A DNA stretch of 64,000 nt from the NCBI GenBank assembly GCA_012959785.1, contig DUCM01000011.1, positions 61,824 to 125,823 of the forward strand. The letters run 5' to 3'. Source of the stretch: Planctomycetota bacterium (GTDB lineage: Bacteria > Planctomycetota > UBA1135 > GCA-002686595). Shown one piece after another: positions 1 to 63,646 of this stretch; the first letter of the stretch is position 1, and every line of letters starts with the position of its first letter. Both the position numbers and the translations under genes were made by a program. The notes below the pieces were generated by a model, which worked only from the letters and a program-made list of their open reading frames with translations, did not search any database and was not told the origin of the DNA.

Positions 1-404
1 GGGTAACCGCTAACACCCCACTTGTCTCCACTGGAGAAACCCGCGGCGCAGCGCACCCTGACTCCCATCTCATCGACATAGGCCGAGACCTTCTCCTCGG
101 ACTCATCGCTGACAGCCAACACGACCAGGCCTTTCGATCCGAATTCGTCCTGCAGCTCCTGCAGGTGGGGCCAAGACCCCTTGCACGGGCCTCACCAGGT
201 GGCCCAAAACTCGAGCAGGATCGCCTGCCCACGCAAACTCTCCAGGTCGGGATTGGCGCCGATGTGGTTGAACCAGGTCGAGGCCTCGATTTCCGGTGCG
301 GCACTTCCGTTGCCGGGCAAGTCGGGTGTGGGGCAGGTGAAGGCGCCCACGGCGAAGGCCATGCCGAGGCCCACGGCGAGAAAGACAGCGTTGAATTTCA
401 TCAT
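1..404 (-). CDS. TlpA/ResA-like periplasmic thioredoxin-fold thiol:disulfide oxidoreductase, predicted selenoprotein (W-U-G-P-C); 3' end lies beyond the window
   Basis: ATG at 404 gives signal peptide MMKFNAVFLAVGLGMAFAVGA. ORF 192..659(-) stops after ...LLEFWATW at TGA 192-194. Reading through in the same frame gives GPCKGSWPHLQELQDEFGSKGLVVLAVSDESEEKVSAYVDEMGVRVRCAAGFSSGDKWGVSGYP, open (63 codons) to the window edge. This completes a WCGPC-type redox motif and a TlpA-like fold, with TGA at the first Cys. Confidence 0.7.
149..180 (-). promoter_or_regulatory. Candidate bacterial SECIS region (two hairpins directly 3' of the in-frame UGA)
   Basis: On the mRNA strand, GGGGU-CUUG-GCCCC (167-180) starts 12 nt after the UGA. 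The perfect 7-bp hairpin CCUGCAG-GAG-CUGCAGG (149-165) starts 27 nt after the UGA and has G residues in its apical loop. No formal SECIS model was run. Confidence 0.4.
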
Positions 405-622
405 TTTTCCAGGGAGAAGTTGTGCGCCTCGCGGGGACTGGACCCTCTCAGAGGGACCGACTCTCAAAGAGACAGTGTCCGGCTCGCGCATGCGAAGGTG
501 TGTGCATACTACACCCCGCTCCCCCGGTGTGTCCTGCCGATTCCAGAGGGGCCACGCGCTCCGCCCGCGGACGACTGCGCTTGTACTGCCAGGGGTCCCT
601 GGTCGAGAATGAGGCCAAGCCC

Positions 623-1297
623 ATGCCGCCCCGCAACCCAAAAAACAAGAGCAGCGCATCAGGGCCAGGCCCCGTGCCCACCAAGGCCAAGTGGCAGGCC
701 CCTCGTCGGGCCGCCCACTACGCTGGCGCGCGCTTTGGAACGCCGCGCGCAGAGCAACGCGACAGCCGCGCCATCGCTCGGCTCCTGAGGCGCCACGGCG
801 AATTTCCCATCAAAGACTTACTCGACGCGCCCTGCGGCACCGGGCGCCTCGCGCCAGCCTTGAGCCAGGCCGCGAAGCGCTACATCGGTGCCGACATCTC
901 CGCCGCCATGTTGGGCGAGTTCAGAGGCCCAAACGGGATGCGGGCCCTGCGGATCAACGGGGACGCAACGGAGTTGCCCTTCCAAGGCGGGAGTTTCGAT
1001 GTGGTGGTGTGTTGCCGCCTCTTGCACCACCTCGACCCAGGCGCGCCCCTCGAAGCCGTGGCGCGAGAACTCGTGCGCGTGTCCCGCAGCCTTGTGCTGG
1101 CTTCCTTCTGGGATTGCGCCTGCCTGCCCGGGCTACGCCGGGCGTGGGGTTGGCGGCGGGACACGAGCGGACGCCGGCCTCTGCCGCGAGCCACCATCGA
1201 GGAGGCCTTCGCAGGCGCTGGTGGGCGCCTGCTGGGCTACACCACGAGCTGCCGCTTTCTGTCCATGCAGACCTTCATCGCCGTGGGGGTAGATTGA
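623..1297 (+). CDS. Class I SAM-dependent methyltransferase
   Basis: Motif I DLLDAPCGTGRL plus GADIS...LPFQGGSFDVVVCCRLLHHL (Methyltransf_11/25 pattern). ATG 623 was chosen because the 67 upstream codons of ORF 422..1297 are Arg/Pro-rich and uninformative. The stop overlaps the next start (TGATG). Confidence 0.8.
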   Translation: MPPRNPKNKSSASGPGPVPTKAKWQAPRRAAHYAGARFGTPRAEQRDSRAIARLLRRHGEFPIKDLLDAPCGTGRLAPALSQAAKRYIGADISAAMLGEFRGPNGMRALRINGDATELPFQGGSFDVVVCCRLLHHLDPGAPLEAVARELVRVSRSLVLASFWDCACLPGLRRAWGWRRDTSGRRPLPRATIEEAFAGAGGRLLGYTTSCRFLSMQTFIAVGVD

Positions 1298-2149: not shown

Positions 2150-2632
2150 TCAATCCCGAAAAGAACTCTCTGCGTCGGGGCAGGTTGCTTCGAGGCGGGT
2201 GCGCAATGAGTCGTGCAGGGGGCGCGGCACGGCCACGGCCAGCCATGTCGGTCCCAGGCGGAAGCGCAAGTGCTCGCCGGTCAAACGCCAGGCGTCGAGT
2301 TCGGCGAGGGAGCGCGCTCGCCAACCGTACTGCACGCCACGCAATCCGCAGCGCTGGTCGTGGGTCGCCGGCGCCAGCCACCAGGCGCCGCCAGCGGGAA
2401 TCAAGAGCAGCGCGGCGAAGGTGCCCAGCCGCGGATCGACGGCCAGCGCCAGCAGGATCACGGCAAGGCCCAACAGCAGCCCCAAGGCGCGCCAGAGGCG
2501 GGGTGCGGTGTGGGCATGCAGCAACTCCCCCACCAGGGCCTCGCGCCGCGCTCGTAGGAAAAGGGCGCAGACCAGAGCAAGGGAACTCTCGACCAGGGAG
2601 AGCAGCAACAGGGCTTGCATGGCAAATTGCAT
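2150..2632 (-). CDS. Hypothetical membrane protein
   Basis: 160-aa ORF with hydrophobic helices (ALLLLSLVESSLALVCALFL, LGLLLGLAVILLALAV, FAALLLIPAGGAWWLA) and a soluble C-terminal part. No family recognised. Confidence 0.5.
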   Translation of the reverse strand: MQFAMQALLLLSLVESSLALVCALFLRARREALVGELLHAHTAPRLWRALGLLLGLAVILLALAVDPRLGTFAALLLIPAGGAWWLAPATHDQRCGLRGVQYGWRARSLAELDAWRLTGEHLRFRLGPTWLAVAVPRPLHDSLRTRLEATCPDAESSFRD

Positions 2633-2689
2633 GGGATGCGCGATTCTAGCCCGCCAGACGCCGCAGGCGAGAGGTTATGCTCAACGATC

Positions 2690-3571
2690 ATGAGCACGCC
2701 CACCCCTTTCGTCCGCTTGGCTCTGGTTTCGCTGCTCTTCACCGCTTGCAGCAGTGTGGGTCTGCGCGGCGCGGGCTACATGACCTACGACACCAAGAGC
2801 GGCCGCAGCGTCGAACTCGGCAGCCTGTGCGATGAGCTGGCCCGCCACGATGTTGTTTTCCTCGGCGAAGAACACGACAACGATGTGGGGCATCGCCTGC
2901 AACTCTGGACCCTCACGCGCCTCTTTGAGCTGCGGCCGGGACTCGTGCTCTCCATGGAACAGTTCGAGGCCGATGTGCAGGAGCTCCTGGATCGCTACCT
3001 CGCGGGCAAGATCGGCGAAGAGGAGTTCCTGGCCACCTCGCGGCCCTGGGGCAACTACGCCGAGCATTACCGGCCCATGGTCGAGTTCGCTCGGCGGCAC
3101 GGGATCCCGGTCATCGCGGCCAACATCCCCCGTCCCCTGGCGCGGCGTGTGGCCTATGGCGGTCTGGAGCGCATCGGCGGCGAGAACTTTGGCCCCTGGG
3201 ATGCGTGGACCGATGAGCCGGAGTACCTCGATCTCTTCGCCGAAGCCATGGGCCGGCACGGACAGGAAAACCGCGACGAGGGCCTCGAGCGCTGGTTCGC
3301 CGCGCAGTGCAGCAAGGATGAAAAAATGGCCGAGAGCATCGCCGCCGTTTTTGACAGAGAGAACGGCGAGCGGCCCTTGGTGGTGCACCTGTGTGGAAAG
3401 TTCCACTCGGACAAGCACCTCGGCAGCGTTTCACGCCTGGCGCGCCACAAGCCGGAGTTGAGCCTTGCGGTGGTCTCGATGAACTCCGACAAGCGCATCC
3501 GCCGCGCGCTGAGCGCCGATGAGCTCTCGCGCGGCGATTTCGTTTGGCTGGTGCGGCCCCAGCCGGACTGA
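2690..3571 (+). CDS. ChaN-family (PF04187-like, haem-binding uptake/Tiki superfamily) lipoprotein
   Basis: ATG 2690. Lipobox LLFTAC. Blocks VVFLGEEHDN, LSMEQFE, IPVIAANIPR and LCGKFHSD are typical of ChaN-like proteins. Confidence 0.7.
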   Translation: MSTPTPFVRLALVSLLFTACSSVGLRGAGYMTYDTKSGRSVELGSLCDELARHDVVFLGEEHDNDVGHRLQLWTLTRLFELRPGLVLSMEQFEADVQELLDRYLAGKIGEEEFLATSRPWGNYAEHYRPMVEFARRHGIPVIAANIPRPLARRVAYGGLERIGGENFGPWDAWTDEPEYLDLFAEAMGRHGQENRDEGLERWFAAQCSKDEKMAESIAAVFDRENGERPLVVHLCGKFHSDKHLGSVSRLARHKPELSLAVVSMNSDKRIRRALSADELSRGDFVWLVRPQPD

Positions 3572-3789
3572 GTCGCAAGCGCCGAGTTTCCAAACCGCAG
3601 GAGCTTGACTCAGTGTCTCTGGGTGCCCTCGGCGCCCAGCGTGCGCCACGAAGAGCTGCGCCTTTGGGCTGACTTCGAGCAGGACACCGCGCTCGAGGTT
3701 CATCATGATGAGGGGCTCTGCCTGGGTTTCGATGTGGCAACCAGAGCCAGAGGAGCAATCCGGCAGGCGGCCTCGATGGATAGCTCGCG

Positions 3790-3824
3790 CCTCACCCTTG
3801 CCCGGGGAGCCTCTTGCGGTGAGG
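3790..3824 (+). promoter_or_regulatory. Hairpin pairing CCTCACC with the GGTGAGG Shine-Dalgarno-like sequence of the ABC substrate-binding gene
   Basis: CCTCACC (3790-3796) and GGTGAGG (3818-3824) are perfect complements separated by 21 nt. The 3' arm abuts ATG 3825 and lies 9 nt before ATG 3834. Confidence 0.4.
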
Positions 3825-3833
3825 ATGCCGCCC

Positions 3834-5642
3834 ATGCATCGCCGTCTCCATTGGCCCCAGGTGGCCCTCGCCGCGCTCCTTTGCTGCCTCTCTTGCGGTT
3901 GCTGGGCGCGCAAGGCAGGCGCCTCGGCGGACACCGGTCAGGGAAAAACCCTGACCCTACCTATTCGCTCGGCGGGCCCCGGATCCCTGGATCCGGTGCG
4001 TGGCTCCACGACCTACGACAGCCAGGCTTGCTCGCTCGTGTACGAAACGCTCCTGCAATACAAGTACCTCAAGCGCCCCCTGGAACTCGAGCCGCTTTTG
4101 TGTGTGGCCATGCCCCAGGTCAGTGAGGATCGCCTCGTCTACACCTTTGAGTTGCGCCAGGATGTTTTCTTCCACGACGACCCCTGCTTCGAGAACGGCA
4201 AGGGCCGCCAGATGATCGCCAGGGATGTGGTCTATTCCTGGAAGCGCTTGGCGGACTCGGGCATTGGCACCCGCAACTGGTGGCTCCTGGAGAGCACGAT
4301 CCTGGGCTTGGACGAATGGCGCGGCCAGCAGAACAAGAACGACAGCTTCGACTACGACGCGCCGGTCGAGGGCATCTTGGCCCTGGATCGCTTCAGCCTG
4401 CAAGTCACCCTGACCGAGCCGGTGCAACGCTTCCTCTACATCCTGGCCATGTTCCAGATGTCGGTGGTGCCCCACGAAGCGGTCGAGTTCTATGGCGAGA
4501 CCATCTCGCGCCATCCCGTGGGCACCGGCCCCTTCACCCTGGCGGAAGAGGATTGGAAAACCTCCAAGAGCCTCGACTTCAAGCGCAACGGCGCCTGGCG
4601 CGAGGAATTCTACCCCTCCGAGTGGATGGAGCGCGACGAAGAGCGGGGGCTGCACCTCGATGCCGGTAAGCGCCTGCCCCTCGTCAACCACATCCGCTTC
4701 AACTGTTATGTGCAGGACCAGCCCATGTGGCTCGAGTTTCGCACCGGCCTGCTCGACTACGCGCAAATTCCAGCCGAGAACTACATCGACTGCATCCGCA
4801 AGCGCACCCACCAACTAAAAAAGGCCTACCGCGACGAGGGCATCGAATACCACCCCGTGCCTCTGCTCGATTTCATTTTTCGCGGCTTCAATATGGAGGA
4901 CGAATTGCTCGGCGGTTACAGCCCGCAAGCCAAACAGCTGCGCCAGGCGATCAGCCTCGCCATCGACCTCGAAGAGTTCAACAACACCTTCTACAACGGC
5001 CAAAACATCGTCTACGACGGCATGATCCCGCCGGGACTCGATGGCTATCCCGAAGGTGGGCGTTGCGAGGCCTCGTACACCGGGCCGGACCTCGCACGGG
5101 CGCGCGAGCTCCTGGCCCTCGCGGGCTATCCTGGCGGCGAGGGCCTGGGAAAAATTGACTTCTACACTTCCCTGGCCGCCAACAGCCAGGAGCAGACCGA
5201 GATGATGCAGCGCCAGTTGGGCAAGATCGGCATCGAGCTGAACGCCATCTTGCTCGAGTTCCCGCAACTGATCGAGGCCATCAACAAGAAGAAGGCGCCC
5301 ATGTTTTCCTTCGCCTGGGGCTCGGACTATCCCGATGGTGAAAACAACCTGGCACTCTTCTACGGCCCCAATCGCTCACCCGGATCCAACCACTACAACT
5401 ACGAGAACGAGGCCTTCGATCGGCTCTACGAGAAGATCCGCTCGATGCCGCCTTCCGCCGCGCGCACGGAAATTTACGCCACCATGCGCGACATGGTGCT
5501 CGAGGATGTGGCCTTCATCGGCGGCATGGCGCGCACGCGCAACTACCTCTCTTCGGCGCGCATCCGCAATTTCAAGCCCACCGAGGACTTCTGGAATTGG
5601 CCCAAGTATCTCGACATCAGCCCTTCCACTCCTGCTAACTAG
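3834..5642 (+). CDS. ABC transporter substrate-binding protein, family 5 (Opp/Dpp/Nik type)
   Basis: About 600 aa with an N-terminal hydrophobic, Cys-rich signal (ALAALLCCLSCGC) and a family-5 SBP pattern (LDPVRGSTTYDSQACSLVYETLLQYKY...). It heads a five-gene importer operon. Start is ATG 3834 (GAGGA 8 nt upstream) or ATG 3825. Confidence 0.85.
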   Translation: MHRRLHWPQVALAALLCCLSCGCWARKAGASADTGQGKTLTLPIRSAGPGSLDPVRGSTTYDSQACSLVYETLLQYKYLKRPLELEPLLCVAMPQVSEDRLVYTFELRQDVFFHDDPCFENGKGRQMIARDVVYSWKRLADSGIGTRNWWLLESTILGLDEWRGQQNKNDSFDYDAPVEGILALDRFSLQVTLTEPVQRFLYILAMFQMSVVPHEAVEFYGETISRHPVGTGPFTLAEEDWKTSKSLDFKRNGAWREEFYPSEWMERDEERGLHLDAGKRLPLVNHIRFNCYVQDQPMWLEFRTGLLDYAQIPAENYIDCIRKRTHQLKKAYRDEGIEYHPVPLLDFIFRGFNMEDELLGGYSPQAKQLRQAISLAIDLEEFNNTFYNGQNIVYDGMIPPGLDGYPEGGRCEASYTGPDLARARELLALAGYPGGEGLGKIDFYTSLAANSQEQTEMMQRQLGKIGIELNAILLEFPQLIEAINKKKAPMFSFAWGSDYPDGENNLALFYGPNRSPGSNHYNYENEAFDRLYEKIRSMPPSAARTEIYATMRDMVLEDVAFIGGMARTRNYLSSARIRNFKPTEDFWNWPKYLDISPSTPAN

Positions 5643-5660
5643 CCCGAATTAACCTGGATT

Positions 5661-6614
5661 ATGTGGTCCTACACAGCGCGCCGACTGCTCTACAACATTC
5701 CGGTCTATCTCGGCATCGTGCTCCTGCTGATGCTGGCTCTGCGGGTCAATGACCCGGCCAACGCCTTTCTCGGCAAGAACGCAAACCCCGAGGACCTGCT
5801 TCTGATCAAGGAACGACTGGGTCTCGACCGGCCCTTCTTGGTGCAGTACTTCGACCTTCTAAAAAGCGTCTTCAGCCTCGATTTCGGCACCTACAGTTGG
5901 GCCAATGAAGGCATCACCGTGGGGCGTATGTTGCGCGAATCGGTAGTGCCGAGCCTCTCAATCACCCTGCCGGCGCTGATCCTCACCAGCACGGTTTCGA
6001 TCACCATCGCCCTGATCTCGGCCTTCTTCCGCGGCCGCCGCATCGATCGCGCTTTGATGGTGCTGGCCGTTGTGGGCATGAGCGTTAGCTTTCTGGTCTA
6101 CATTGTCTTCGGGCAGTACTTCGGCGCCTACCTGCTCACCCGCGAGACGGGTTACAGTTTTTTCGCCATCGGCGGCTACGAATCGGGCCTTGCCAACTGG
6201 CCCTACTACTGTCTGTTGCCGGTCCTGATCAGCAGCCTTGTGGCCATGGGCTACGACACGCGCTTTTATCGCGCGGTGATGGTCGAGGAGTCCGGGCGCG
6301 ACTACATCGTCACCGCCACGGCGAAAGGCGCAAGCAAGCGCAAGGTCATGTTCGTGCACATGTTGAAGAACGCCATGATCCCCATCATCACGCGTATCAT
6401 GACGACCCTACCCTTCCTGATCATGGGCTCGCTGCTGCTCGAGGTGTATTTCAACATCCCGGGCATGGGCCGCGTGCTCTACAAGGCCATCCAGGAACAG
6501 GATTTTCCCGTGATCCAGATCTTCGTGGCCATCTTCGCAGGCCTCTTCATCCTCTCCAACATCTTGACTGATGTGCTCTATGCCTTGGTTGATCCGCGGG
6601 TGAGGCTCTCATGA
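5661..6614 (+). CDS. ABC transporter permease (OppB/DppB-like)
   Basis: 317 aa, six hydrophobic segments. BPD_transp_1-type loop MVEESGRDYIVTATAKGASKRKVMFVHMLKNAMIPIIT. Confidence 0.9.
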   Translation: MWSYTARRLLYNIPVYLGIVLLLMLALRVNDPANAFLGKNANPEDLLLIKERLGLDRPFLVQYFDLLKSVFSLDFGTYSWANEGITVGRMLRESVVPSLSITLPALILTSTVSITIALISAFFRGRRIDRALMVLAVVGMSVSFLVYIVFGQYFGAYLLTRETGYSFFAIGGYESGLANWPYYCLLPVLISSLVAMGYDTRFYRAVMVEESGRDYIVTATAKGASKRKVMFVHMLKNAMIPIITRIMTTLPFLIMGSLLLEVYFNIPGMGRVLYKAIQEQDFPVIQIFVAIFAGLFILSNILTDVLYALVDPRVRLS

Positions 6615-7795
6615 GCGGGCGATTGAAACAATTCTTCTCGCAACGGGGCATGCGCAAGCTGCGCCAAGACAAGATGGCCATGGGCGCTCTTTTTGTGATC
6701 GGTTGCTATCTGATCCTGGCGCTCTTCGTGGTGGCCCATCTGCCCTCGCCCGAAGCCGTGGTCATGCGCGTCGGACCGGACAACATTCCCGGCGTGTTCG
6801 GCACGCAAACCGCGGAAAAGCGACTCTCCGACGCCGAGTTTCGCCTCGAAGCGCTGCAACGGGCCGTGCGCACGAACGATCCTGAGACCTCGCTGGCTGA
6901 GTTTCGTATGGGCGACTTGCGCATCCTTGCCGGAACTCCAAAAGCCGTCGAATCCAGGATTGAGGGCGGTTGGAAGGCCTTTGAAGCGGTGGCTGTCTAC
7001 GATGACATCGAAGCCGAAGCCGTGGCCCTGGAGCTCTTGGAGAACCTGGAGAGCGAAGTCGCGGCGCTCTTCAGCCCGCCCACCGGGTTCACGGCTCTGG
7101 CGAGTTTCTTGCGACTCTCCCTGGGCACCGACCGCCAGGGGCGTTCGATCGCGTTGCGCGCCATCTACTCGACCAAAGTAGCAGTGCAAATCGGCATGGT
7201 GGCAGCTTTGATCTCGGTCTTGATTGGCACGCTCCTGGGCGCCGCTGCCGGATACTTCGGCGGCTGGGTCGACCACCTGGTGGTCTGGCTCTACTCGATC
7301 TTCTCCTCGATCCCCTGGATCGTGATGTTGATGGTGCTGGCCTCCATGTTCCGCGGCAGTCGTTTCGACGGCGGCCTGATCCCTGTCTACGCCGCCTTCT
7401 GCATGTCGTTTTGGATCTCTCCCTGCCGCGTGATTCGCGGCGAGGTGATGAAGCTCAAGGAACTCGAGTATGTGCAGGCTGCCTCGGCCATCGGTTTCGG
7501 GCACCTGCGCATCCTCTTGCGACATGTCATCCCCAACACCGCGCACCTGATGTTCATCAACTTCTCGTTGTTGTTCATCGGCGCCATCAAGGCCGAGGTG
7601 ATCCTCTCCTTCCTGGGCCTGGGCGTGAAGGACGAGCCCTCCTGGGGCGTCATGATCAACCACGCCAAGGCCGAGGTCCTGAACGGCTTCTTCTGGCAAA
7701 TCGGTGCTGCCACGGCATTCATGTTGGTGCTCGTCTTGGCCTTCAACATCCTCTCGGACGCCCTGCAAGACGCCTTCGATCCCAAACATGTTTGA
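6611..7795 (+). CDS. ABC transporter permease (OppC/DppC-like) with a long periplasmic insert after TM1
   Basis: ATGA overlap with the upstream permease. C-terminal half is OppC-like (EYVQAASAIGFGHLRILLRHVIPNT). About 140 non-hydrophobic residues lie between the first TM (ALFVIGCYLILALFVV) and the next. Confidence 0.9.
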   Translation: MSGRLKQFFSQRGMRKLRQDKMAMGALFVIGCYLILALFVVAHLPSPEAVVMRVGPDNIPGVFGTQTAEKRLSDAEFRLEALQRAVRTNDPETSLAEFRMGDLRILAGTPKAVESRIEGGWKAFEAVAVYDDIEAEAVALELLENLESEVAALFSPPTGFTALASFLRLSLGTDRQGRSIALRAIYSTKVAVQIGMVAALISVLIGTLLGAAAGYFGGWVDHLVVWLYSIFSSIPWIVMLMVLASMFRGSRFDGGLIPVYAAFCMSFWISPCRVIRGEVMKLKELEYVQAASAIGFGHLRILLRHVIPNTAHLMFINFSLLFIGAIKAEVILSFLGLGVKDEPSWGVMINHAKAEVLNGFFWQIGAATAFMLVLVLAFNILSDALQDAFDPKHV

Positions 7796-8807
7796 CTTGC
7801 CCCAACGAACCGCTAGCGAGCAGCCCGTGCTCTCGGTGCGGCACCTCTCCTGCAGTTTCAAGACCGACCGCGGCGAAGTCAGGGCCATTGACGATGTGTC
7901 CTTCGACCTGGCCGCAGGCGAGACCCTGGGCGTGGTGGGCGAATCCGGTTGCGGCAAGACCGTAACCTCCAAGTCCATCATGCGGCTGTTGCCAGAGCAC
8001 CTCTCGTTCCTCGGTCGGGACAGCGAGGTACTTTTCGAGGGTGAGAACATCGCCTTTGCGCCACCCGAGCGCATGCGCGAGATTCGCGGTCGGCGCATCG
8101 CCATGATCTTTCAGGAGCCCATGACATCCCTGAATCCGGTCTTCCGTGTGGGCTGGCAACTTTGCGAGGCGCTCAAGTACCACACCGAGCTCGACCGAGC
8201 CGGTCGCCGCGCGCGGGCCATCGAGATGCTACAGCTGGTGGAGATGCCCGAGGCCGAGCGTCGCATCGAGGAGTACCCCCACCAACTCTCCGGAGGCATG
8301 CGCCAGAGGGTCATGATCGCCATGGCCCTGTGTTGCGAGCCCGATGTGCTGATCGCCGACGAGCCCACCACGGCCCTCGATGTCACCATTCAGGCGCAGA
8401 TTCTGCAACTGATGGAGAATCTCAAGAGCAAACTCGGCACTGCCATCATGCTCATCACCCACGACCTCGGGGTCGTGGCCCAGGTCTGCGACCGGGTGCT
8501 GGTCATGTACGCCGGTCGCGTGATCGAGTCGGGAACGGTACACGAGATTTTCCACACGCCCCAGCACCCGTACACCCGCGCTCTGCTCGACTCGATCCCC
8601 AAGTCCGGAGAGCGCGCGCACAAAACACGCCTGCCCACGATCCCCGGCATTGTGCCGAGCCTTTTTGAACTGCCTCCCGGTTGTCGCTTTCAGGATCGGT
8701 GTCCCCTGGCCGAAGACCGCTGCCGCGACCGCGAGCCCGAGCTCTTGGGCGAGTTGCACGGCCGTCGCGTGCGCTGCCATCTGCCCCTCGCGGGAGGTCC
8801 CCGATGA
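7788..8807 (+). CDS. ABC transporter ATP-binding protein (OppD/DppD-like)
   Basis: Walker A GESGCGKT, signature LSGGMRQR, Walker B VLIADEPTTALD, and C-terminal oligopeptide-type extension (PPGCRFQDRCP). ATG 7788 overlaps the permease end by 8 nt. Confidence 0.9.
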   Translation: MFDLPQRTASEQPVLSVRHLSCSFKTDRGEVRAIDDVSFDLAAGETLGVVGESGCGKTVTSKSIMRLLPEHLSFLGRDSEVLFEGENIAFAPPERMREIRGRRIAMIFQEPMTSLNPVFRVGWQLCEALKYHTELDRAGRRARAIEMLQLVEMPEAERRIEEYPHQLSGGMRQRVMIAMALCCEPDVLIADEPTTALDVTIQAQILQLMENLKSKLGTAIMLITHDLGVVAQVCDRVLVMYAGRVIESGTVHEIFHTPQHPYTRALLDSIPKSGERAHKTRLPTIPGIVPSLFELPPGCRFQDRCPLAEDRCRDREPELLGELHGRRVRCHLPLAGGPR

Positions 8808-9772
8808 GCTCAAAAGCCCTCCTCGAAGTGCGCGATTTGGTGATGCATTTTCCCGTGCGCGGCGGCGTCCTGAACCGCGTGCTGCGCCGCGTCCACGCCG
8901 TCAACGGCGTTTCCTTTGCCGTGCAGCGCGGCGAGGTCTTGGGGCTAGTGGGCGAGTCCGGTTGCGGCAAGTCCACCCTGGGCAAGTGCTTGATTCGACT
9001 CCTTGAACCCACTTCGGGCTCTGTTCTCCACGACGGCAGTGAACTCGTGGGCCTCAAGCACGGCGGCTTGATGAAGCACCGCCGCAAGATGCAGATGATC
9101 TTCCAGGACCCTTACAGTTCGCTCAATCCGCGCCTTAGCGTGCGCGAGACTCTGCGCGAAGTGGCCCTCTTTCACGGCGTCGCCATGCCCCATGGTTTGG
9201 ATGCCTACATCGCGCACTTGATTGAACGAGTGGGTTTGCGGGCCGAAGCGGCCGACAAGTTTCCTCACGAGTTTTCTGGCGGCCAGCGCCAGCGCATCGG
9301 CATCGCCCGGGCCCTGGCCTGCGAACCCGAGTTTTTGGTGGCGGACGAACCGGTCTCAGCCCTCGATGTCTCGATCCAGGCCCAGGTTCTGAACCTCTTG
9401 ATGGACCTCAAGGAAGAATTCGGTCTGACCGTGGTGTTCATCTCCCACGACCTCAAAGTGATCGAGCATTTCTGCGACCGTGTGCTGGTCATGTACCTCG
9501 GTTCCATCGTGGAAGAGATCGACTGCACCCAACTGCACGCCGAAGCACGCCATCCCTACACCCGCGCGCTCCTGGGAGCCAACCCGATCAACGACCCCGC
9601 CGACCGACGCCCCTTGACCGTGCTCCAGGGCGATGTGCCCAGCCCTTTCGAACTGCCTCCCGGTTGCGCCTTCGCAGGTCGCTGTCCCGTGGTCGAAGAG
9701 CGTTGCCACCAGGAACGGCCCACCCTCAGCGAGCGGAGCGCGGGTCACAGCGTGGCCTGCCTTCTGGATTAG
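8804..9772 (+). CDS. ABC transporter ATP-binding protein (OppF/DppF-like)
   Basis: Walker A GESGCGKST, signature FSGGQRQR, Walker B FLVADEPVSALD, PPGCAFAGRCP. ATGA overlap with the upstream gene, preceded by GGGAGG. Confidence 0.9.
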   Translation: MSSKALLEVRDLVMHFPVRGGVLNRVLRRVHAVNGVSFAVQRGEVLGLVGESGCGKSTLGKCLIRLLEPTSGSVLHDGSELVGLKHGGLMKHRRKMQMIFQDPYSSLNPRLSVRETLREVALFHGVAMPHGLDAYIAHLIERVGLRAEAADKFPHEFSGGQRQRIGIARALACEPEFLVADEPVSALDVSIQAQVLNLLMDLKEEFGLTVVFISHDLKVIEHFCDRVLVMYLGSIVEEIDCTQLHAEARHPYTRALLGANPINDPADRRPLTVLQGDVPSPFELPPGCAFAGRCPVVEERCHQERPTLSERSAGHSVACLLD

Positions 9773-32834: not shown

Positions 32835-34853
32835 TCAACTCGGTGGACGGGCTTCTGTGGTGGCACCAACCGCTTGGGGCACGAGGTCCACGCGGGTGGA
32901 CATGTAGGTCGTGCCGCTGCCGAGGTCGGAGAGTTGGTCGTGGTGCAAGGCGTTGAGGGGCAGGGCCTCGGGGGTGTCGTGGGCCTGGGGTTGGCCGTCC
33001 ACGCGCAAGAGTCCCGGAGGCATGTCGGCACTGGGCGTGATGGGCAGGGTGATGCGCGCCAGATCGTTCACCAAGGTGGCGAGATCGCCGGTGGCCAGGC
33101 CCAGGCGGCGGGCATCCAGGGGATTGATGTGGCAGGTATACTCGCCGCTGCGCGCACGGTGCCGCTGCACTCGTGAGAAGGTCGTGTTGTGGGTGTGCTT
33201 CGAGGGCGCGCTCACCAGGCTGAAAGCGCGCGGCGTACCGGGAGTGATCTCGGGCACAAAGGTTGCCATGGGCGGCTGGCCCGCGCTGGCGGCGGCGGTG
33301 CTGAAGAGTTCGACGCGGCCGCTGGGCGTGCCGCGGGGTCCGGTCGGGGGCTGGATCTTGGTGGGTTTGCCCGCAAGCAGGGACTCTTGAGCCTCGGCGC
33401 CAAGGCTGGCAGAGGCCGCGCGGATCAGTTCAAGGCAGAGCTCGTCGGCGCTCGTATGAAAGGCCTCTTGTTCCAGGCCCAAGGCGCGGGCGATGGCGCA
33501 GAAGGTGTCCACATTGTTACGCGGCCCCGGGGGAGGCGCGACGGCCGCGCGTCCGTACTGCGCCACGCGGTGTCCGTAACTCTGGTAGAGATCGGAGTGT
33601 TCGACAAAGGTGGTGGCCGGCAGAACCACATCGGCCAGCTCGGCGGTCTCGGTCAGGAACTGCTCGTGCACCACGCAAAAGACATCCTCGCGGGACAGCC
33701 CCAGGCGCACGGCGCGACTGTCGGGCAGGGTCACCGCGGGGTTGTGGCCCCAAATGAAAACCGCGCCAAAGCGCCCGGAGTTGAGCTCGCGGCCGACCTG
33801 GATCTGATGCACGGGGGGCGGGAGAGGCGCATGGCGCAGATCGGGGCGCTCTACAAGTTGCTTGTCAAAGGTGAACACCGCGCCGCTCTCGTAGTGCACG
33901 CGTTCGGCATGGCCCAGCAGCGCCGCCAGGGAACAGACGGCGCGCATTCCCATAGCGCCGTTGGTGCGTCGGGTCCAGCCCGATCCGGTACGCAAGAAGG
34001 GCTGCTTGGCGTGCCGCAGGATATGGCTGAGAAACTCAATCTCGGCGGGTTCGAGGCCGCAGATCCGGGCGGCTTCGTCCACGGAGGGAGCGCCGCAGAG
34101 GTGAGCCTCGAAGCGTTTTGCGCCGAGACACTCAGCCGCGAGTCGTTCGCGGTCCACCCAGCCCCTTTCAAACGCCGCGCGGCAAATCGCAAGCGCCAGG
34201 GCCGCGTCGGTACCGGGATGGATGATCAGGCTGCGGGCGCCGAATTTTTCGAAACTGCGCACTGTGTCGGTGCGGTAGATGTCCACGATCGCGAGGGGTG
34301 CGCCGCCCTTGGCGAGTTTTTGCAGACCGGGCTGTAGATGCTGGATGGTGCGCTTGACATCGCTACCCCAGATCACGGCGGCGTCGGAATCGGACAGGCT
34401 TTCCACATCGGGGCCGATGCAGCGGCCCAGCACCGTGCTGTAGCCCGCCGTGGAGGTCGTGTCGCAAACGCCGCCGTCGTGCTGCACGCCGCCCAGGGCG
34501 TGGATCATGCGCATGGGAAATCTGCGGGCCACTAGGCCCATGGATCCCGCGTATTCGAGGGCCAGAATGCGCTCCCCCGCCAGGGGTTTGACACGCTTTG
34601 CAATAAGGGCGAGGGCCTCGTCCCAACTCGCTTCGACAAGGACGCCCGCGCGGCGCACCAGGGGCCTCAACAAGCGCTCTGGGCTCTGCACCAACTCGTG
34701 GTAGTGAGCGGTCTTCGAACACAAGACGCCGCGGCTGTAGGGGTGCTCGGGATTGCCGCGCACGCGCAGCAAGGCGCCGGCAGCATCGGTTTCCACCAGA
34801 ACCCCGCAGGCGTCGGGGCAATCGAGGGGGCAGGTGCTCGGGTGCAAGGCCAT
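32835..34853 (-). CDS. Molybdopterin (bis-MGD) oxidoreductase family protein, cytoplasmic type
   Basis: N-terminal 4Fe-4S motif CPLDCPDACG with no Tat or signal sequence. Molybdopterin-binding and C-terminal Molydop_binding patterns. 672 aa. Confidence 0.9.
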   Translation of the reverse strand: MALHPSTCPLDCPDACGVLVETDAAGALLRVRGNPEHPYSRGVLCSKTAHYHELVQSPERLLRPLVRRAGVLVEASWDEALALIAKRVKPLAGERILALEYAGSMGLVARRFPMRMIHALGGVQHDGGVCDTTSTAGYSTVLGRCIGPDVESLSDSDAAVIWGSDVKRTIQHLQPGLQKLAKGGAPLAIVDIYRTDTVRSFEKFGARSLIIHPGTDAALALAICRAAFERGWVDRERLAAECLGAKRFEAHLCGAPSVDEAARICGLEPAEIEFLSHILRHAKQPFLRTGSGWTRRTNGAMGMRAVCSLAALLGHAERVHYESGAVFTFDKQLVERPDLRHAPLPPPVHQIQVGRELNSGRFGAVFIWGHNPAVTLPDSRAVRLGLSREDVFCVVHEQFLTETAELADVVLPATTFVEHSDLYQSYGHRVAQYGRAAVAPPPGPRNNVDTFCAIARALGLEQEAFHTSADELCLELIRAASASLGAEAQESLLAGKPTKIQPPTGPRGTPSGRVELFSTAAASAGQPPMATFVPEITPGTPRAFSLVSAPSKHTHNTTFSRVQRHRARSGEYTCHINPLDARRLGLATGDLATLVNDLARITLPITPSADMPPGLLRVDGQPQAHDTPEALPLNALHHDQLSDLGSGTTYMSTRVDLVPQAVGATTEARPPS

Positions 34854-34895
34854 GGCGTTAGTTCGGATCCAAAAGAGCCGCGGGACCTCGCGGTT

Positions 34896-46196: not shown

Positions 46197-46626
46197 TCGA
46201 GCTATTCTGACTAAGAGGAGACCCACCATCAGATCCGAGCAACTCGCGGCCGCAGCAGCCTGGCTGGCCGATCAAAAAAAGGCCCAGGACATTCGTATCT
46301 ACGATGTCGGGGAGGAGTTGCAGGTGGCCGACTACTTCGTGGTCATAACGGGGCTCAATCGTCCCCATGTGAAAGCCATCTACCAGGAGCTGCATGTGCG
46401 CCTGAAGGCCGCGGGCGAGATCCACGCCCGGGCTGAGGGCGCGGATACCGCTTGGTGGGTGCTGCTCGATTACGGGGATGTGGTGGTCCACATTCTCCAG
46501 AGCGAGGCCCGCGAGTACTACGACCTCGACCGCCTCTACCAGACCTGCCGAGGCCTCGAATGGCCCTCGGTGGACCTGCCCGAGCTGCCGGAGCCGGCCC
46601 AGCACCGCAGGGCCGCGGGCGAGTAG
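46165..46626 (+). CDS. rsfS: Ribosome silencing factor RsfS (iojap-like)
   Basis: [27 protein letters not shown].....[29 protein letters not shown]. The listed start (TTG 46165) overlaps hppA by 32 nt. An in-frame ATC at 46228 follows a strong AAGAGGAGA by 6 nt. The start is therefore uncertain. Confidence 0.85.
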
Positions 46627-46673
46627 CCCGGGAAGGCCCGCTCCAACCTGGGCTGCTCGGAGCGAGCTGCCTC

Positions 46674-46699
46674 CTGGTGATGTGCTCTGGCGATGTGCT
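46674..46699 (+). repeat. 13-nt tandem direct repeat TGG[T/C]GATGTGCTC x2
   Basis: 46674-46686 tggtgatgtgctc and 46687-46699 tggcgatgtgctc, in the 206-nt gap between rsfS and the DUF255 gene. Confidence 0.9.
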
Positions 46700-46832
46700 C
46701 CAGAAGACTGGAGTGGGAGAAAATTCAGCCGATAATAGGCCGTGCGAGGCCCGTGCCGTGGGCGCACAATGCGAGTCCGGGGCGATCCTCGCCCGCTCTC
46801 CCCTCCCCACGCTCCCATCCCCGCCCTCATCC

Positions 46833-48581
46833 ATGCAATGGCACGACTGGAACGATGACGCCTTTCAAGAAGCCCGCGAGCGCGGGTCTCTGGTGCTGTT
46901 GTTCGTCAAGGCATCTTGGTGCCGCTGGTGCAAGGAACTCGAGGAGCGGGTGCTCTCGGACGAGCGCGTGACCGAACGGCTGGCGGCGAATTTTGTGGCC
47001 ATCGCCGTGGACAAGGATCGCCGCCCCGACATCGACTCGCGCTACACCCGCCGCGGCTGGCCGACCCTGGCCTGGCTAGACTCCCAGGGCGAACTCCTCG
47101 GTGCAGACAACTTCCTCGATGTCGAGCCCCTGCTCGAACGCCTCGAAGATGTGGTCGAATGGCACCGCGCCGGCCCCCACCTCGTGCGTCAGCGACTCAG
47201 CGAACTGAATCAACCGGCTGACCCGCCGAGCCCGCCCAAGCCAGCGGTGAGCACCGCCTTGGGCACACCCAAGGTCGAGCTTTCCCTGGACATCGTCGAG
47301 AGCGTGGCCCAGTCCGTGCTGGAGTCCGCCGATCCGATCCACGGAGGCTGGGGCAAGGCGCACAAATTTCCCCACCCCGAAGCGATCGACTTCGCTCTGG
47401 TCCGCTGGTCCCAAACGGGCGATCCCCAGATGCTCTCCCTGGTGCGGCGCACCCTGCGCAAGATGCAGGAGGGCGAGATCCACGACTCGGTCGAGGGCGG
47501 TTTCTATCGCTACGCGACGCAAGCGGATTGGGGCGTGCCAAACCATGAGAAGATGCTCGACAGCAACGCGCAACGCGCCTTCGCCTACCTCGAGGCCTTT
47601 CAGGCCCTGGGCGACGAGAGCTTCGAAGCGACGGCGCGCGGCGCGCTGGAGTGGATGACCAGCACCCTCTTCGACCCCGAGACCCACGCCTTCCGCGGTA
47701 GCCAGGACGCCGACTCCGAGTACGCCCGCCTGAGCACGCGGGAAAAGCGCGCGCAACGGGGAGCACCAAGTTGCGACTCGACCATCTTCGCCAACTGGAA
47801 CGCCATGACTGTCTCGGTGCTGCTCAAGGCCGATGCGGTCCTTTGCGAGCGGCGCTGGCGCGATCACGCCGTGGACACGCTCGAGTTCCTCACCACCGAA
47901 CTCTGGGACAGTAGCAAGGGCGTCTATCACTACTGGGACGGCGATCGGCACATCAGCGGCATGCTGCGGGACCAGGCCTACACCCTGCGGGCCCTGATCG
48001 ACGCCGTGCAGTTCGGAGCGCAGAACCAATACCTCGAAACGGCCTGTCAATTGGCCGACCTCTCGATCCGTCAACTGCGGGCCGACAACGGCGGTTTCTA
48101 CGACAAAACCCACGATCCCCACGCCCGCGGCGGGCTGCGCAAGCGCAATCGCTCGATCCTGGAGAACTCGATCATGGCCGAAGCCCTGCTGCGGCTCTCG
48201 CACCTGACCGGTGACCGCGGCTATGAAAATTGCGCCCGGGAAGCCCTGGCATCCTTCGCCCATGACTACAAACGCTACGGCCACTGCGTGGCTGGCTACG
48301 CCCGAGCCGTGGACCTGTTCTTCCATGTGCCGGTGGTAGTCACGATCGTGGGCGAGCACAACTCGCCGGCCGTGGCCGCCTTGCAGCAGGCGGCGCTCAA
48401 GCCCTACATCGCCAGCCGTGTGGTGCGCCTCTTCGATCCCGAACGGGATGCGCAACTGTTGGCCCGCGTGGGCCTCGAGGGATCTCCCGGCGCCGCCCAC
48501 GCCTATGTGGAGCGCGGTCGCGAGAGCTATGCCGAGACCGACGATCCGCGCCGCCTGGCTGCGCTGATGATGCGCACCTGA
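46833..48581 (+). CDS. Thioredoxin-domain (DUF255) protein with N-acylglucosamine-2-epimerase-like (alpha/alpha)6 domain (YyaL/SPATA20-like)
   Basis: MQWHDWNDDAFQEARERGSLVLLFVKASWCRWCKELE... is the DUF255 N-terminus. A long helical C-terminal domain follows. ATG 46833. Confidence 0.8.
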   Translation: MQWHDWNDDAFQEARERGSLVLLFVKASWCRWCKELEERVLSDERVTERLAANFVAIAVDKDRRPDIDSRYTRRGWPTLAWLDSQGELLGADNFLDVEPLLERLEDVVEWHRAGPHLVRQRLSELNQPADPPSPPKPAVSTALGTPKVELSLDIVESVAQSVLESADPIHGGWGKAHKFPHPEAIDFALVRWSQTGDPQMLSLVRRTLRKMQEGEIHDSVEGGFYRYATQADWGVPNHEKMLDSNAQRAFAYLEAFQALGDESFEATARGALEWMTSTLFDPETHAFRGSQDADSEYARLSTREKRAQRGAPSCDSTIFANWNAMTVSVLLKADAVLCERRWRDHAVDTLEFLTTELWDSSKGVYHYWDGDRHISGMLRDQAYTLRALIDAVQFGAQNQYLETACQLADLSIRQLRADNGGFYDKTHDPHARGGLRKRNRSILENSIMAEALLRLSHLTGDRGYENCAREALASFAHDYKRYGHCVAGYARAVDLFFHVPVVVTIVGEHNSPAVAALQQAALKPYIASRVVRLFDPERDAQLLARVGLEGSPGAAHAYVERGRESYAETDDPRRLAALMMRT

Positions 48582-49238
48582 GTGTTGCGAAACACCGCCT
48601 GGCGAGTTGTCTTCTGCCTCGTGTGCGCGGCCTGCGCCCGTAGCGATGACGAGTGGCGTGGCGACCTCAAGAACCCAGATCCCCATGTGCGCGGCCTGGC
48701 AGCCATCGGCTTGAGCCTGCAGGCGCCGCGCGCGGCCGAGGCCGCCCTGCCGGTGCTCTTGAAGACCATCGACCGTTCCGATGTGGGCCTCGAGCGCGAG
48801 GCGGCCCGGGCGCTCTCCCTGCTGGCGCCCGAACATGTCGAGTGGCTGCTCGAAGAACTGGTCGGCAACAGCCTTATCAGCTCCGACCGGCGCGGCGCCA
48901 TGTTGAACGCCCTGGTGGCCTCGGGTGCCAAGGCCGCCGGCCCCATCGTGGTCTGCCTCCAGGGACCGGGACGGGATGTGGCGGACCAGTTGGGTGAAGT
49001 GCTGCTCCAAATCGGCGCGCCGGCAGTGCCCAGCCTCGTGCAATTGCTCGCAAGCCCGGACGACTTCAGCCTGCAAAACTACGCGGCCTTCCTGCTGGGC
49101 AAGCTGGGGCCGCGGGCGCGAGGGGCGCGGCCGGCCCTCGAAGAGGCGCTGAACTCTCCCGACAAGGGCGTGCGCCGCGCCGCCAGAGGCGCGCTGCAAT
49201 CCATGGGGCGTGGAAGAGGGGCGAGCAAGGGACCCTGA
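48582..49238 (+). CDS. HEAT-repeat lipoprotein
   Basis: GTG start 1 nt after the upstream TGA. Lipobox LVCAAC. Repeated D..VR..AA.AL HEAT-like units (DPHVRGLAAIGL, SPDKGVRRAARGAL). Confidence 0.6.
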   Translation: MLRNTAWRVVFCLVCAACARSDDEWRGDLKNPDPHVRGLAAIGLSLQAPRAAEAALPVLLKTIDRSDVGLEREAARALSLLAPEHVEWLLEELVGNSLISSDRRGAMLNALVASGAKAAGPIVVCLQGPGRDVADQLGEVLLQIGAPAVPSLVQLLASPDDFSLQNYAAFLLGKLGPRARGARPALEEALNSPDKGVRRAARGALQSMGRGRGASKGP

Positions 49239-59893: not shown

Positions 59894-62800
59894 TCAGTCC
59901 TTGACGCCCGCGGGCATCGAATCGAGGTTGTAGAGCCAGTCCAATACAGCGTCGATCTGCTGGACATTGTTCGAGTTCGGGTAGGCCTCCTGGTACTGAG
60001 GCGGATACGAAGCGAAGTTGCCCGGCATGGTTGTGCCCGGATAGATCAGGGCAGGGTTCCACAACCATGCCTGGACCCAATCCTCGCGCAAGCGCTCGCG
60101 CACGAGATCGAGGTCCGGTGCCCATGCACTGGGGGTCTCCATCTGGGTCGGCCCCTGGCCCTTGAGCCAGTGGCACTGGAAGCAGTTGACTCCATCGGTG
60201 GCGATGTTGCGACCGGCAGCGGCGTGGTTGGCATGGCTGGGCAGGCGCCGGGTCACGAGCTCGTGCACCGGATTGGTGGGACCGTTCATGCGGAAGCCCG
60301 CAGCGTCACCGTAGGCCTTGATGCGCGGGAATTTCGCGGCGATGTCCGGCGCGGAACCGGCTTCGATGAAGTTCACTGCCGCGGTGGTCACTTCAGCGGC
60401 TTCAGCCAGATCCGAGGCGCTGATGCCGTTGCCATCATCCATGAAGTTCGTCATGCGCGGGAAGGGCATGCCATCGCCGTCAGAACCATCCTGCAGGGTC
60501 ACACCGAGGGCGGTGCGCAGGGAACGGGTGTAGCGCGGAGCCCACTCGATTTCGGCCTTGTGGGCAAAGTAGTCAGCCACCGCACCCGCTTCCGCGGCGC
60601 TGATGTTGAAAGAAGGCATCCTGACCCGCATCTGAGGCCGAATGACCTCGGGATCGCGCAGGAAGGCGAAGAGCCATTCGCGCTGCAATTTGTGTCCTTC
60701 GTCGAAAAGCACCGGCGGGGCATAGGTCCAACGCAAGGTGTCGTAGTGCAGCTCGGTGTAGTTGCGTGCCACACCGTCTACATCCAGCACTTCCCCATCC
60801 GGCCCGAAGTGCCAGTAGGAGATCTCGTCGGCTTCGGCATCGTGCATCTCGATGCCCTCGCTGTAGTAGCGCAGGATGGTCTGCACGAAGTCGCCGCCGC
60901 TGGGCGCTTCGATGGACAGGAGGTCGTCGAGTTCGACGAAGACCGACTCGCCGGCAAAACCCACCTCGGGGACGGTTTCGAGCAAGCGGAAGCCGACATC
61001 CTCGACTTCTTCGTCCATCTCCAACTCGTAGTTTTCGATGTCCTCCATGAGGCTCGCGAGGTCAGTCTGGTGCGGCGGCAGGTCGGCGTCGCCGATGGGA
61101 ATCAGCTCGGCCGGCACAGTGCGCGCGATTCCGTCCTCATCGTTGTAGGTGATCCGGCCTGGATCGATCATGTGGCAGGCCATGCAGTTCTGCTGGCGCA
61201 CCACGGCGAGGCCATCATTGATGGACTGTTTGCCAGGTGTCGGCACCATCTTGGCCCGCTGCACCTCGTCATTGACAAGGCCTACGACAAAAGTCGAAAG
61301 AGCCAGGACCTCATCGCTATCCAGGCCGAAGTGCGGCATGCGCTGGCGCTCGATGGGGTTCTTGACTTTCTGGTCGTCGAAGCGCCGGGGGTCGTCGAGC
61401 TTGTACTCGAGCCAGTTCTCGCGGTATTGCTTGAACTCCTCGCGCTGGTCAAAACTCCAGCCGTGCTCGTGGGTCAGGATGTTGGGTAAGAAGGCCCAGT
61501 CGAGCTTGTCGGGGGTCTTCGAACCCCAGGTCGAGAGCTCCGTGCCGATCGGGTTGGTGTCATCGAAGCCATTGATCGTGTGGCAGGAGAAACAGCCCTG
61601 GTGGCCGATGAACTTCTCGCCCACGGCAACCAGCAAGTCCGCCTTTCTATCCCAGCGCAAGAGGGGGTTCTCCCCGGCAAAGCGCCGCTCTAGTTCGACC
61701 CGGCCGTCCCGGGAGAAGAACCAGCGCGCCTGTTCCTGCAACACATCGAGGGCCGCCTCACTGGGACCCTCCTGCCAACCTTCGGGCACATCGCGGAAGA
61801 TCCCATCGGGGTCGTCCATGATGTAAGCAGTGATGTCGGCGGCATCCTCGTCTGAGAGACGCAGGTTCGGCATCTGAGTCTCGGGCCAGTAGGCAGCCGG
61901 ATCCTTGATCCAGGCGTAGAGCCAGTTGCGATCGACCTTGCTCGCCACGCCGCGCAGGGACGGGCCGTGTTCGTTCTCCCCGCTAAGCTCGAAGACGAAG
62001 TCGGATGTGGCAAGTGCCTCGCCCGGATAACCGACCAGGTTGTGACAGGCGAGGCAGCCCACAACACGGAAGGTCTCGCGGCCGCGATCAACATCGCCCG
62101 CTTGCGGCGGCGCTGGGTAGCCACGCTTGGGGCTCTTCTCGATGAGGTAGGCCGTGATCGAGGCGATCGCCGCGTCTTCCCACTCCTGGCCAAAGATCGA
62201 GCGCCCGGCGCCCCACTTGGATTTCGCGACCTCTTCGTCAGGCCGGGTGTTCGAGAGGTTGAAGATGCGCGGCATCTTCGTCGAGGGACGGAAACTCTTG
62301 GGATCGGTAATCCACGCGCTGAGCCAGTCGGCGTCGAACTTGGACTGCAAGTTCGCCAAGCTCGGTCCCGGCCGGCGCGTCGTGGGGAACCAATCGACCT
62401 TGTGGCAAGCGTAGCAGCCCTTGTCCTCGAAGAGTCGATAGCCTTTGGCCAGACGCGGCGCTTCGGGAGCGATCAATTCCATGGTGGTCTTGTGACACTG
62501 CACGCAAGCGGACTCGAAGTAGTCGGCACTGAGCATGGGATAGTCCCAGTGGTGCTGCTTGTGCCAGTGGTGCATCGCCTGCCACTCTTCGGTCTGGGCT
62601 GCGCCTGCGGGACGGTGATCTGTGTGCTGGAAGCTGAGGCCCTGGCCGGCGCCGCGGTGACAAATCGTGCAGCCGACCTGGTTGACCGGATGCGGCGACT
62701 TGGCTGTCAGGTAGAGGTCGAGGCGCGGGTGGGTCAGGAAGGGGTGGTCGAGTGCCTGCCCGTCTTCGGCAACCCAATCCTCATCGTAGCCGGCGCGGTC

Positions 62801-63586: not shown

Positions 63587-63646
63587 GGGTCTCGTGTGAC
63601 GCTAGTCTGACTGGGAAGGAGGGTGAGGAAGGTGATGCGCGGGGCT

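Follow-up and report, generated by a model that had tools for sequence, protein, structure and literature searches.

The window analyzed here, a 64 kb stretch of Planctomycetota DNA, opens on its minus strand with the 5' part of a putative selenoprotein gene (Table 1). The reading frame starts at ATG 404-402 with the N-terminus MMKFNAVFLAVGLGMAFAVGAF (MMKFNAV...), a start that was placed at MMKF by alignment and agrees with the N-termini of the orthologues, and it reads LRGQAILLEFWATW up to a TGA at 194..192, ending in ...LLEFWATW. Past this TGA the frame runs on without a stop for another 63 codons, as far as window position 1, and reads GPCKGSWPHLQELQDEFGSKGLVVLAVSDES...DKWGVSGY(P), the in-frame read-through up to the window edge being GPCKGSWPHLQELQDEFGSKGLVVLAVSDESEEKVSAYVDEMGVRVRCAAGFSSGDKWGVSGY. 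Both of these observations had been made in an earlier note on this DNA and were confirmed from the sequence and its translation. With the TGA taken as selenocysteine (Sec), the active site W-U-G-P-C lies at 197..183, and a G-Y-P sequence corresponding to the cis-Pro loop falls at the window edge, with the corresponding Pro invariant in the family. An open frame of 63 codons is on its own weak evidence in DNA of 67% GC, and the fold of the whole region 130-200 of the minus strand is no better than that of shuffled sequences (z = -0.21). Since neither is significant singly, the case depends on comparative evidence.

Table 1. Features at the 5' end of the putative selenoprotein gene (window positions)
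Feature	Position	Strand	Remarks
Putative selenoprotein gene, 5' part, 134 codons	1..404	minus	From sequence and translation; cut by the window edge
Candidate signal peptide or membrane anchor, MMKFNAVFLAVGLGMAFAVGAF	339..404	minus	One Lys, then 19 hydrophobic residues
Thioredoxin-fold domain (TlpA/ResA/AhpC-TSA-like)	51..308	minus	Pfam match spanning the TGA
Redox motif read as U-G-P-C (TGA GGC CCG TGC)	183..194	minus	Proposed Sec codon, TGA 194..192
Hairpin 1, GGGGU-CUUG-GCCCC	167..180	minus	+14..+27, with the U of UGA as 0; starts 11 nt past the UGA
Hairpin 2, CCUGCAG-GAG-CUGCAGG	149..165	minus	+29..+45; best SECIS candidate in the gene

With a Cys put at the TGA, the read-through product matches the Pfam families AhpC-TSA (E = 7.8e-15, residues 33-118), Redoxin (5.8e-11), and Thioredoxin, in each case across the stop. 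Its best NCBIfam matches are ResA and TlpA, both under the curated cutoffs of the models (NF002854, 69.7 vs 170 bits, and NF047696, 50.8 vs 230 bits, respectively). As judged from its sequence, the product is a member of the TlpA-like superfamily and no equivalog of ResA or TlpA. An AlphaFold2 model was built not for the partial window protein but for a Cys-containing orthologue (P0137), from a 44-sequence alignment, with a pLDDT of 91 and a pTM of 0.80. The model is composed of a separate N-terminal helix (residues 4-19), a thioredoxin fold (residues 41-161), and an eight-helix tail (residues 183-334). The N-terminal hydrophobic helix fits a predicted export or membrane anchoring of the protein. 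A Foldseek search with the thioredoxin domain of the model returned ResA and other TlpA-like oxidoreductases, CcmG, DipZ-C, and Etrx2, with TM-scores of 0.68-0.82 relative to the target, so that the TlpA/ResA-type fold proposed in the earlier note is borne out by both the NCBIfam best matches and the structural ones. For the helical tail Foldseek gave no informative top match, since the thioredoxin domain dominates the matches. In 36 of the 44 members the tail shows homology to the C-terminal portion of the NCBIfam model NF041382, "VPGUxxT family thioredoxin-like (seleno)protein, type 1" (best E = 1.2e-17), the match covering profile positions ~187-347 of 349, and a few family members show weak matches to the TPR-like BamD/YbgF families. 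In the protein of one relative (L002) the tail comprises residues ~178-333, past the point where the window ends, and represents one accessory domain common to two selenoprotein families with different redox motifs.

The closest proteins in the databases (P0004, P0005, and P0096) are short and end exactly at ...LLEFWATW. The DNA of these relatives has a TGA at that codon, followed by G/V-P-C-K/R... and by conserved codons up to the real stop. Orthologous DNA bearing the TGA was taken from an NCBI assembly (L001, GCA_014237855.1), from ENA and Logan (L002-L006), and from JGI (L007). The TGA occupies the same codon in 38/38 of the at least 38 distinct orthologous sequences, which come from independent assemblies, and is followed there by 265-271 conserved in-frame codons; the full-length orthologues, read through to the real stop, have 338-347 aa. 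The named relatives are proteins of Planctomycetota metagenome-assembled genomes (MAGs) that are annotated as a truncated "TlpA family protein disulfide reductase" or as a "hypothetical protein". A profile search returned about 65 clusters of 228-271 aa, which are the downstream halves of split calls, together with a handful of full-length proteins of 337-339 aa that share the C-terminal motif GT[KR]AAERA and carry WC[GAP]PC at the Sec column. Full-length orthologues with a Cys at this column (P0133, P0134, P0137, P0138, P0140, and P0141) have the same architecture. The Sec/Cys pairing, named in the earlier note as a check of the claim, and the conservation downstream of the TGA, whose absence the note had listed as a refutation, were thus found among the relatives.

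The same motif extends well beyond the orthologues of the window gene. The DNA pattern F-W-A-T-W-TGA-x-P-C matched at least 120 metagenome contigs, and in all but four or five of them a thioredoxin-fold continuation follows in frame. These genes fall into several subfamilies with about 100, 222, 265-271, 284-295, or 707-874 codons after the TGA, the window's own subfamily being represented by 38 distinct sequences. Apart from the orthologues, FWATW-TGA-xPC is found in more than 110 TlpA-like genes from metagenomes. A contig scan with the pattern EFWATWC, that is, with Cys at the Sec position, retrieved generic TlpA genes, with a single true orthologue (L008), and these loci were reused as Cys controls. 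Several side observations were made on the metagenome loci L088-L207 (for example L105, L115, L120, and L147), where the TlpA-like selenoprotein genes with FWATW-TGA-xPC form no fewer than six length classes. The very long forms, with 707-874 codons after Sec, carry the motif U-[TKA]-P-C-M-G-A-V-P-H-L, and other forms combine N-terminal extensions of more than 400 codons with only about 100 codons after Sec. In one locus (L206), possibly a recombinant or an assembly chimera, a different N-terminal half, ELAFTAVDGRKVDLRELRGKVVLVEFWATW, is joined to the family's GPCRAAWPHLQEL..., and 376 codons follow the TGA.

A closer inspection of the RNA following the UGA was made with the published bSECIS criteria, namely 4-16 bp in the stem and 3-9 nt in the loop, with G among the first two loop nucleotides, a UGA-to-loop distance of 16-37 nt, and a minimum free energy (MFE) of -7.5 kcal/mol or lower (PMC13188914, Fig 2). 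The two hairpins that the earlier note had placed after the TGA both lie where it described them, but only the second one agrees with the bSECIS consensus. Hairpin 1 has a stem of 5 bp, a CUUG loop, a UGA-to-loop distance of 16 nt, and an energy of -8.5 kcal/mol, and conforms to three of four bSECIS criteria, deviating only at the G in the first two loop positions. It uses the rare codons GGG and UCU, occupies the slot of the 7-bp GUG-loop hairpin of the sister clades, and its pair 15-26 is G-C in the window and L002, G-U in L003, and A-U in L001. Hairpin 2, with a stem of 7 bp, a GAG loop, and a UGA-to-loop distance of 33 nt, conforms to four of four criteria, its energy being -10.8 kcal/mol as the MFE of the 19-nt segment and -9.7 kcal/mol as an isolated stem-loop. 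It is kept in all eight distinct relatives of the window that belong to the K-type (K-G-S) clade, and in L001 a pair of synonymous substitutions (CAG to CAA and CUG to UUG) leaves its innermost base pair intact. The R- and S-type clades lack hairpin 2 and use the proximal hairpin. Hairpin 2 is in part a consequence of the palindrome CUGCAG, which common codons for Leu-Gln produce. Only 11.7% of synonymous recodings of the window's peptide give a bSECIS-passing hairpin, however, which is evidence for more than chance.

Comparison of Sec and Cys forms shows that such hairpins are specific to the TGA-bearing genes. The controls are 88 distinct TlpA genes of the Cys form, which have the flanking motif in common with the Sec forms and resemble them in GC content. 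A bSECIS-passing hairpin is present in 79 of 114 distinct Sec forms and in 0 of the 88 Cys forms (p ~1e-28), and the MFE of the segment +3..+45 is -14.1 kcal/mol in the former against -7.3 kcal/mol in the latter (p = 2e-19), these p-values overstating independence because the compared sequences are phylogenetically related. Similarly, 73/114 Sec forms but 9/88 Cys forms can form a hairpin whose stem has at least 5 contiguous bp and whose loop falls at +16..+28. The stems found in this one slot are varied (GUGGGGC/GCCUCAC, GUGAGGA/UCCUCAC, GUACGGA/UCCGUAC, and GGACGGC/GCCGUCC), and the loops are mostly GUG, GUU, or CGUGCC. Two UGA-to-loop spacings are preferred, one of 17 nt (49 sequences) and one of 29-34 nt (23 sequences). 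A 7-bp hairpin at +13..+29 is absent in all four distinct Cys orthologue sequences, a small sample. Within the family, 37 of 38 members have a bSECIS-passing hairpin, compared with 8.1% of synonymous recodings drawn from the codon usage of the same genes.

Codon choice just after the UGA points in the same direction: synonymous variation is suppressed there within the family, and rare codons prevail at the positions on which the stem depends. Arg at +4 is encoded by CGT in 25/25 sequences (7.5% of Arg codons in the same genes), Gly at +5 by GGG in 29/29 (15% of Gly codons), Ala at +6 by GCG in 27/29 (41% of Ala codons), His at +9 by CAC in 38/38 (88.5% of His codons), and Pro at +8 by CCT in 23/38 (4.4% of Pro codons). 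At Pro +8 the third base is variable and changes together with the base opposite it in the stem (alignment columns 17-27 of the A3 alignment, 1-based, or +16/+26 from the U of the UGA); GU was counted 20 times, CG 7 times, and GC 6 times, and no sequence leaves the position unpaired. Over all cells, 85.7% are paired, compared with 42-53% when the partners are slid. Measures that pool the whole region are less distinct. The total MFE is modestly lower than that of synonymous recodings (z = -1.19 for the window and a mean z of -0.94 for the family), and the amino acid sequence itself already favors structure. Per-column pairing gave no information when all subfamilies were taken together, since their registers differ, and RNAalifold on the family alignment yielded 3 pairs only, as the register differs between the K-type and R-type clades. 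An Rfam search of the whole window at the gathering threshold found nothing relevant; a permissive scan of positions 1-600 gave only a spurious plus-strand match to astro_FSE (E = 0.44), which was rejected.

Taken together, the Sec/Cys pairing, the conservation downstream of the TGA, and the SECIS-type hairpins in the Sec forms support the Sec reading (W-U-G-P-C) of the earlier note, and we consider it very probable that the TGA at 192-194 is a Sec codon in a probably exported TlpA/ResA-type thiol-disulfide oxidoreductase of Planctomycetota. Public gene calls treat the TGA as a real stop, with N-terminal calls of 74-97 aa and downstream calls of 228-271 aa, in which case the locus would be a pseudogene, or else two genes translated independently of each other into an N-terminal fragment of 70 aa and a downstream fragment. 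We regard this as highly improbable. Past the TGA, the window has no start-like codon before the GTG at +24, which already lies downstream of the second active-site Cys, and the 23 codons in between, which include that Cys, are conserved at the protein level with synonymous variation; when the family is aligned by codons, the Gly, Pro, and Cys codons that immediately follow the TGA show synonymous differences, and hence this stretch is translated. A split at this point would cut the thioredoxin fold inside its active site, and the arrangement persists in 38 diverged orthologous sequences and in several subfamilies, unlike a decaying pseudogene. A sequencing or assembly error (with TGC or TGT as the true codon) or a genome-wide reassignment of TGA has in our view a negligible probability. 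Errors do occur in such data: P0003, another assembly of the locus on a 907-bp ENA contig, carries a frameshift. Yet more than 100 independent assemblies, made from different samples, all have the TGA at this very codon, which excludes the assembly error that the earlier note had listed among possible refutations. As for reassignment, TGA is the ordinary stop of 22 of 43 likely window ORFs and of 31 of 79 complete Sec-form genes, and therefore the code is not globally reassigned and recoding must depend on local context. In P0003 (window 100-660), the one-base indel lies after ...PEIEAST and leads to a chimeric ORF call of 185 aa in a different frame past the TGA position.

Downstream conservation proves translation only and not the identity of the inserted residue, and the UGA could in principle be read by a near-cognate or suppressor tRNA inserting Cys or Trp, with Sec machinery possibly absent. 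Neither selA, selB, selD, nor tRNA-Sec was found within the 64 kb window, which is without any tRNA, and ARAGORN found no tRNA-Sec in 212 fetched loci (1.9 Mb of relatives' loci). Several Planctomycetes have complete Sec-insertion gene sets (PMC4807772). What speaks against non-Sec read-through, to which we assign a slim chance, is that the SelB-type hairpins are specific to the TGA forms and are maintained by rare and compensating codons, none of which SECIS-independent read-through would need. Moreover, the TGA lies exactly at the column of the catalytic Cys. This is the classic position of Sec.

Under the Sec reading, the UGA at 194..192 would be recoded during translation by SelB-GTP-Sec-tRNA(Sec), the complex being recruited by a stem-loop in the coding sequence just 3' of the UGA. 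The two hairpins are computationally indistinguishable as SelB-binding elements; we lean modestly toward hairpin 2, the one for which a SECIS check by the bSECIS criteria gave a pass. Hairpin 1 is a possible but rather doubtful candidate and might serve as an alternative or auxiliary recruiting element, and the remaining share falls to both hairpins or to neither. Both can form together once the ribosome sits on the UGA. The product would then continue through the remaining thioredoxin fold and, as in the full-length orthologues, through a helical C-terminal domain of about 150-160 residues, with Sec as the N-terminal, attacking residue of the active site. The most likely function is that of an envelope thiol-disulfide reductase with Sec as the nucleophile and the helical module for partner or substrate binding, the reductase activity and the periplasmic location, like decoding by SelB, being predicted. 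No gene neighborhood is common to the window, L001, and L002, so that no functional inference from operons is possible, and neither the window nor the relatives show a gene context of cytochrome maturation or Sco/Cox.

The gene belongs to an established kind of selenoprotein. UxxC Prx-like and thiol-disulfide-isomerase-like (TlpA-like, cd02966) selenoproteins were described in 2005 in the Sargasso Sea selenoproteome (PMC1088965), and a 2026 review of prokaryotic selenoproteomes tabulates these UxxC types (PMC13188914, Table 1) and lists a "Redoxin family protein, UxxC" and a "UGC-containing TlpA family protein" (PMC13188914). The window gene shares with the UxxC TlpA-like and Prx-like proteins the thioredoxin-fold domain of TlpA/AhpC-TSA type, Sec in place of the N-terminal Cys of CxxC, widespread Cys homologues, and a SECIS hairpin in the coding sequence directly 3' of the UGA, whereas the clade of the window, which occurs in Planctomycetota MAGs, has the helical C-terminal domain (~150-160 residues) in addition. 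Bacillus subtilis ResA, Bradyrhizobium TlpA, and CcmG are Cys-containing extracytoplasmic reductases. They have in common with the window family the W-C-x-P-C motif, the N-terminal anchor (putative in the window family), and the conserved cis-Pro loop (G-[YI]-P), and the orthologue model superposes on ResA 1st9, on 4nmu, and on CcmG 1kng with the TM-scores given above; the window family differs in having Sec for Cys and an extra helical tail, and scores far under the cutoffs of the models.

Two NCBIfam selenoprotein families also resemble the window gene in part. VPGUxxT type 1 (NF041382) has a homologous helical C-terminal domain and the same succession of a thioredoxin-like domain and a tail in ~340-350 aa, but its redox motif is V-P-G-U-x-x-T rather than W-U-G-P-C and its N-terminal domain is unmatched, the C-terminal domain alone aligning with 39.6 bits against a cutoff of 350. 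The ResA-like WAxxUGC protein (NF041054) is likewise a ResA-like selenoprotein of ~350 residues with W-A-x-x-U at the same place, but its motif is U-G-C (UxC) and that of the window U-G-P-C (UxxC); the thioredoxin part alone aligns, with a score of 42.8 bits against a cutoff of 300.

The finding is of consequence chiefly for annotation. No curated NCBIfam model reaches its cutoff for the two-domain Planctomycetota subfamily, and automatic pipelines will therefore keep missing the gene. The truncation by gene callers expected in the earlier note is seen in public records, which split such loci into two ORFs, a "hypothetical protein" of 70-100 aa and a truncated "TlpA family protein disulfide reductase" of 228-271 aa (e.g. 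MCB9913851.1). The subfamily with the VPGUxxT-type tail, its distribution in Planctomycetota, and the two SECIS positions in one orthologous gene may be new aspects. We suggest only tentatively that the two-domain clade is an uncatalogued selenoprotein subfamily, defined by W-U-G-P-C and the VPGUxxT-type tail, in which the SECIS element has moved within one gene. In that case, the sister clades would use the proximal GUG-loop hairpin of 17 nt, with 17 nt from UGA to loop, and the clade of the window would use the distal one (33 nt) while keeping a degenerate proximal hairpin. Such a shift, if true, would show in nature how a SECIS element is replaced while the sequence around it remains constrained by coding. 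The family provides a clean set of Sec/Cys orthologues with two SECIS positions for the study of an RNA signal within coding sequence, and extends the use of selenium in the redox chemistry of the cell envelope to Planctomycetota MAGs; knowledge of the mechanism of Sec decoding is unchanged by the finding.

A GC3-based scan of the rest of the window found no other redox-motif TGA or candidate selenoprotein gene. Pairs of ORFs in one frame split by a TGA (at 34896, 39587, 48579, and 59894) were considered and rejected as ordinary gene boundaries. A molybdopterin oxidoreductase (Fe4S4, Molybdopterin, and Molydop_binding domains) is encoded at 32838-34895 on the minus strand, with the N-terminus MALHPSTCPLDCPDACG and without an in-frame TGA; this formate-dehydrogenase-like enzyme is here no selenoprotein. 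A 714-aa DUF255/Thioredoxin_7 (DsbH-like) protein at 46437-48578 (plus strand) is followed in the same frame, after the TGA at 48579, by a HEAT-repeat protein at 48582-49235 (plus strand) with a hydrophobic N-terminus of its own, and this TGA looks like an ordinary gene boundary and not a Sec site. An unusually large ORF of 1235 aa at 59897-63601 (minus strand) combines FixO (the mono-haem subunit of cbb3 oxidase) with cytochrome c/cbb3 subunit III domains. Closer to the start of the window, a complete Opp/Dpp-type peptide ABC transporter operon at 3609-9769 (plus strand), consisting of SBP_bac_5, two permeases, and two ATPases with oligo_HPY, is preceded upstream by a gene for a ChaN-type haem-binding protein at 2558-3568.
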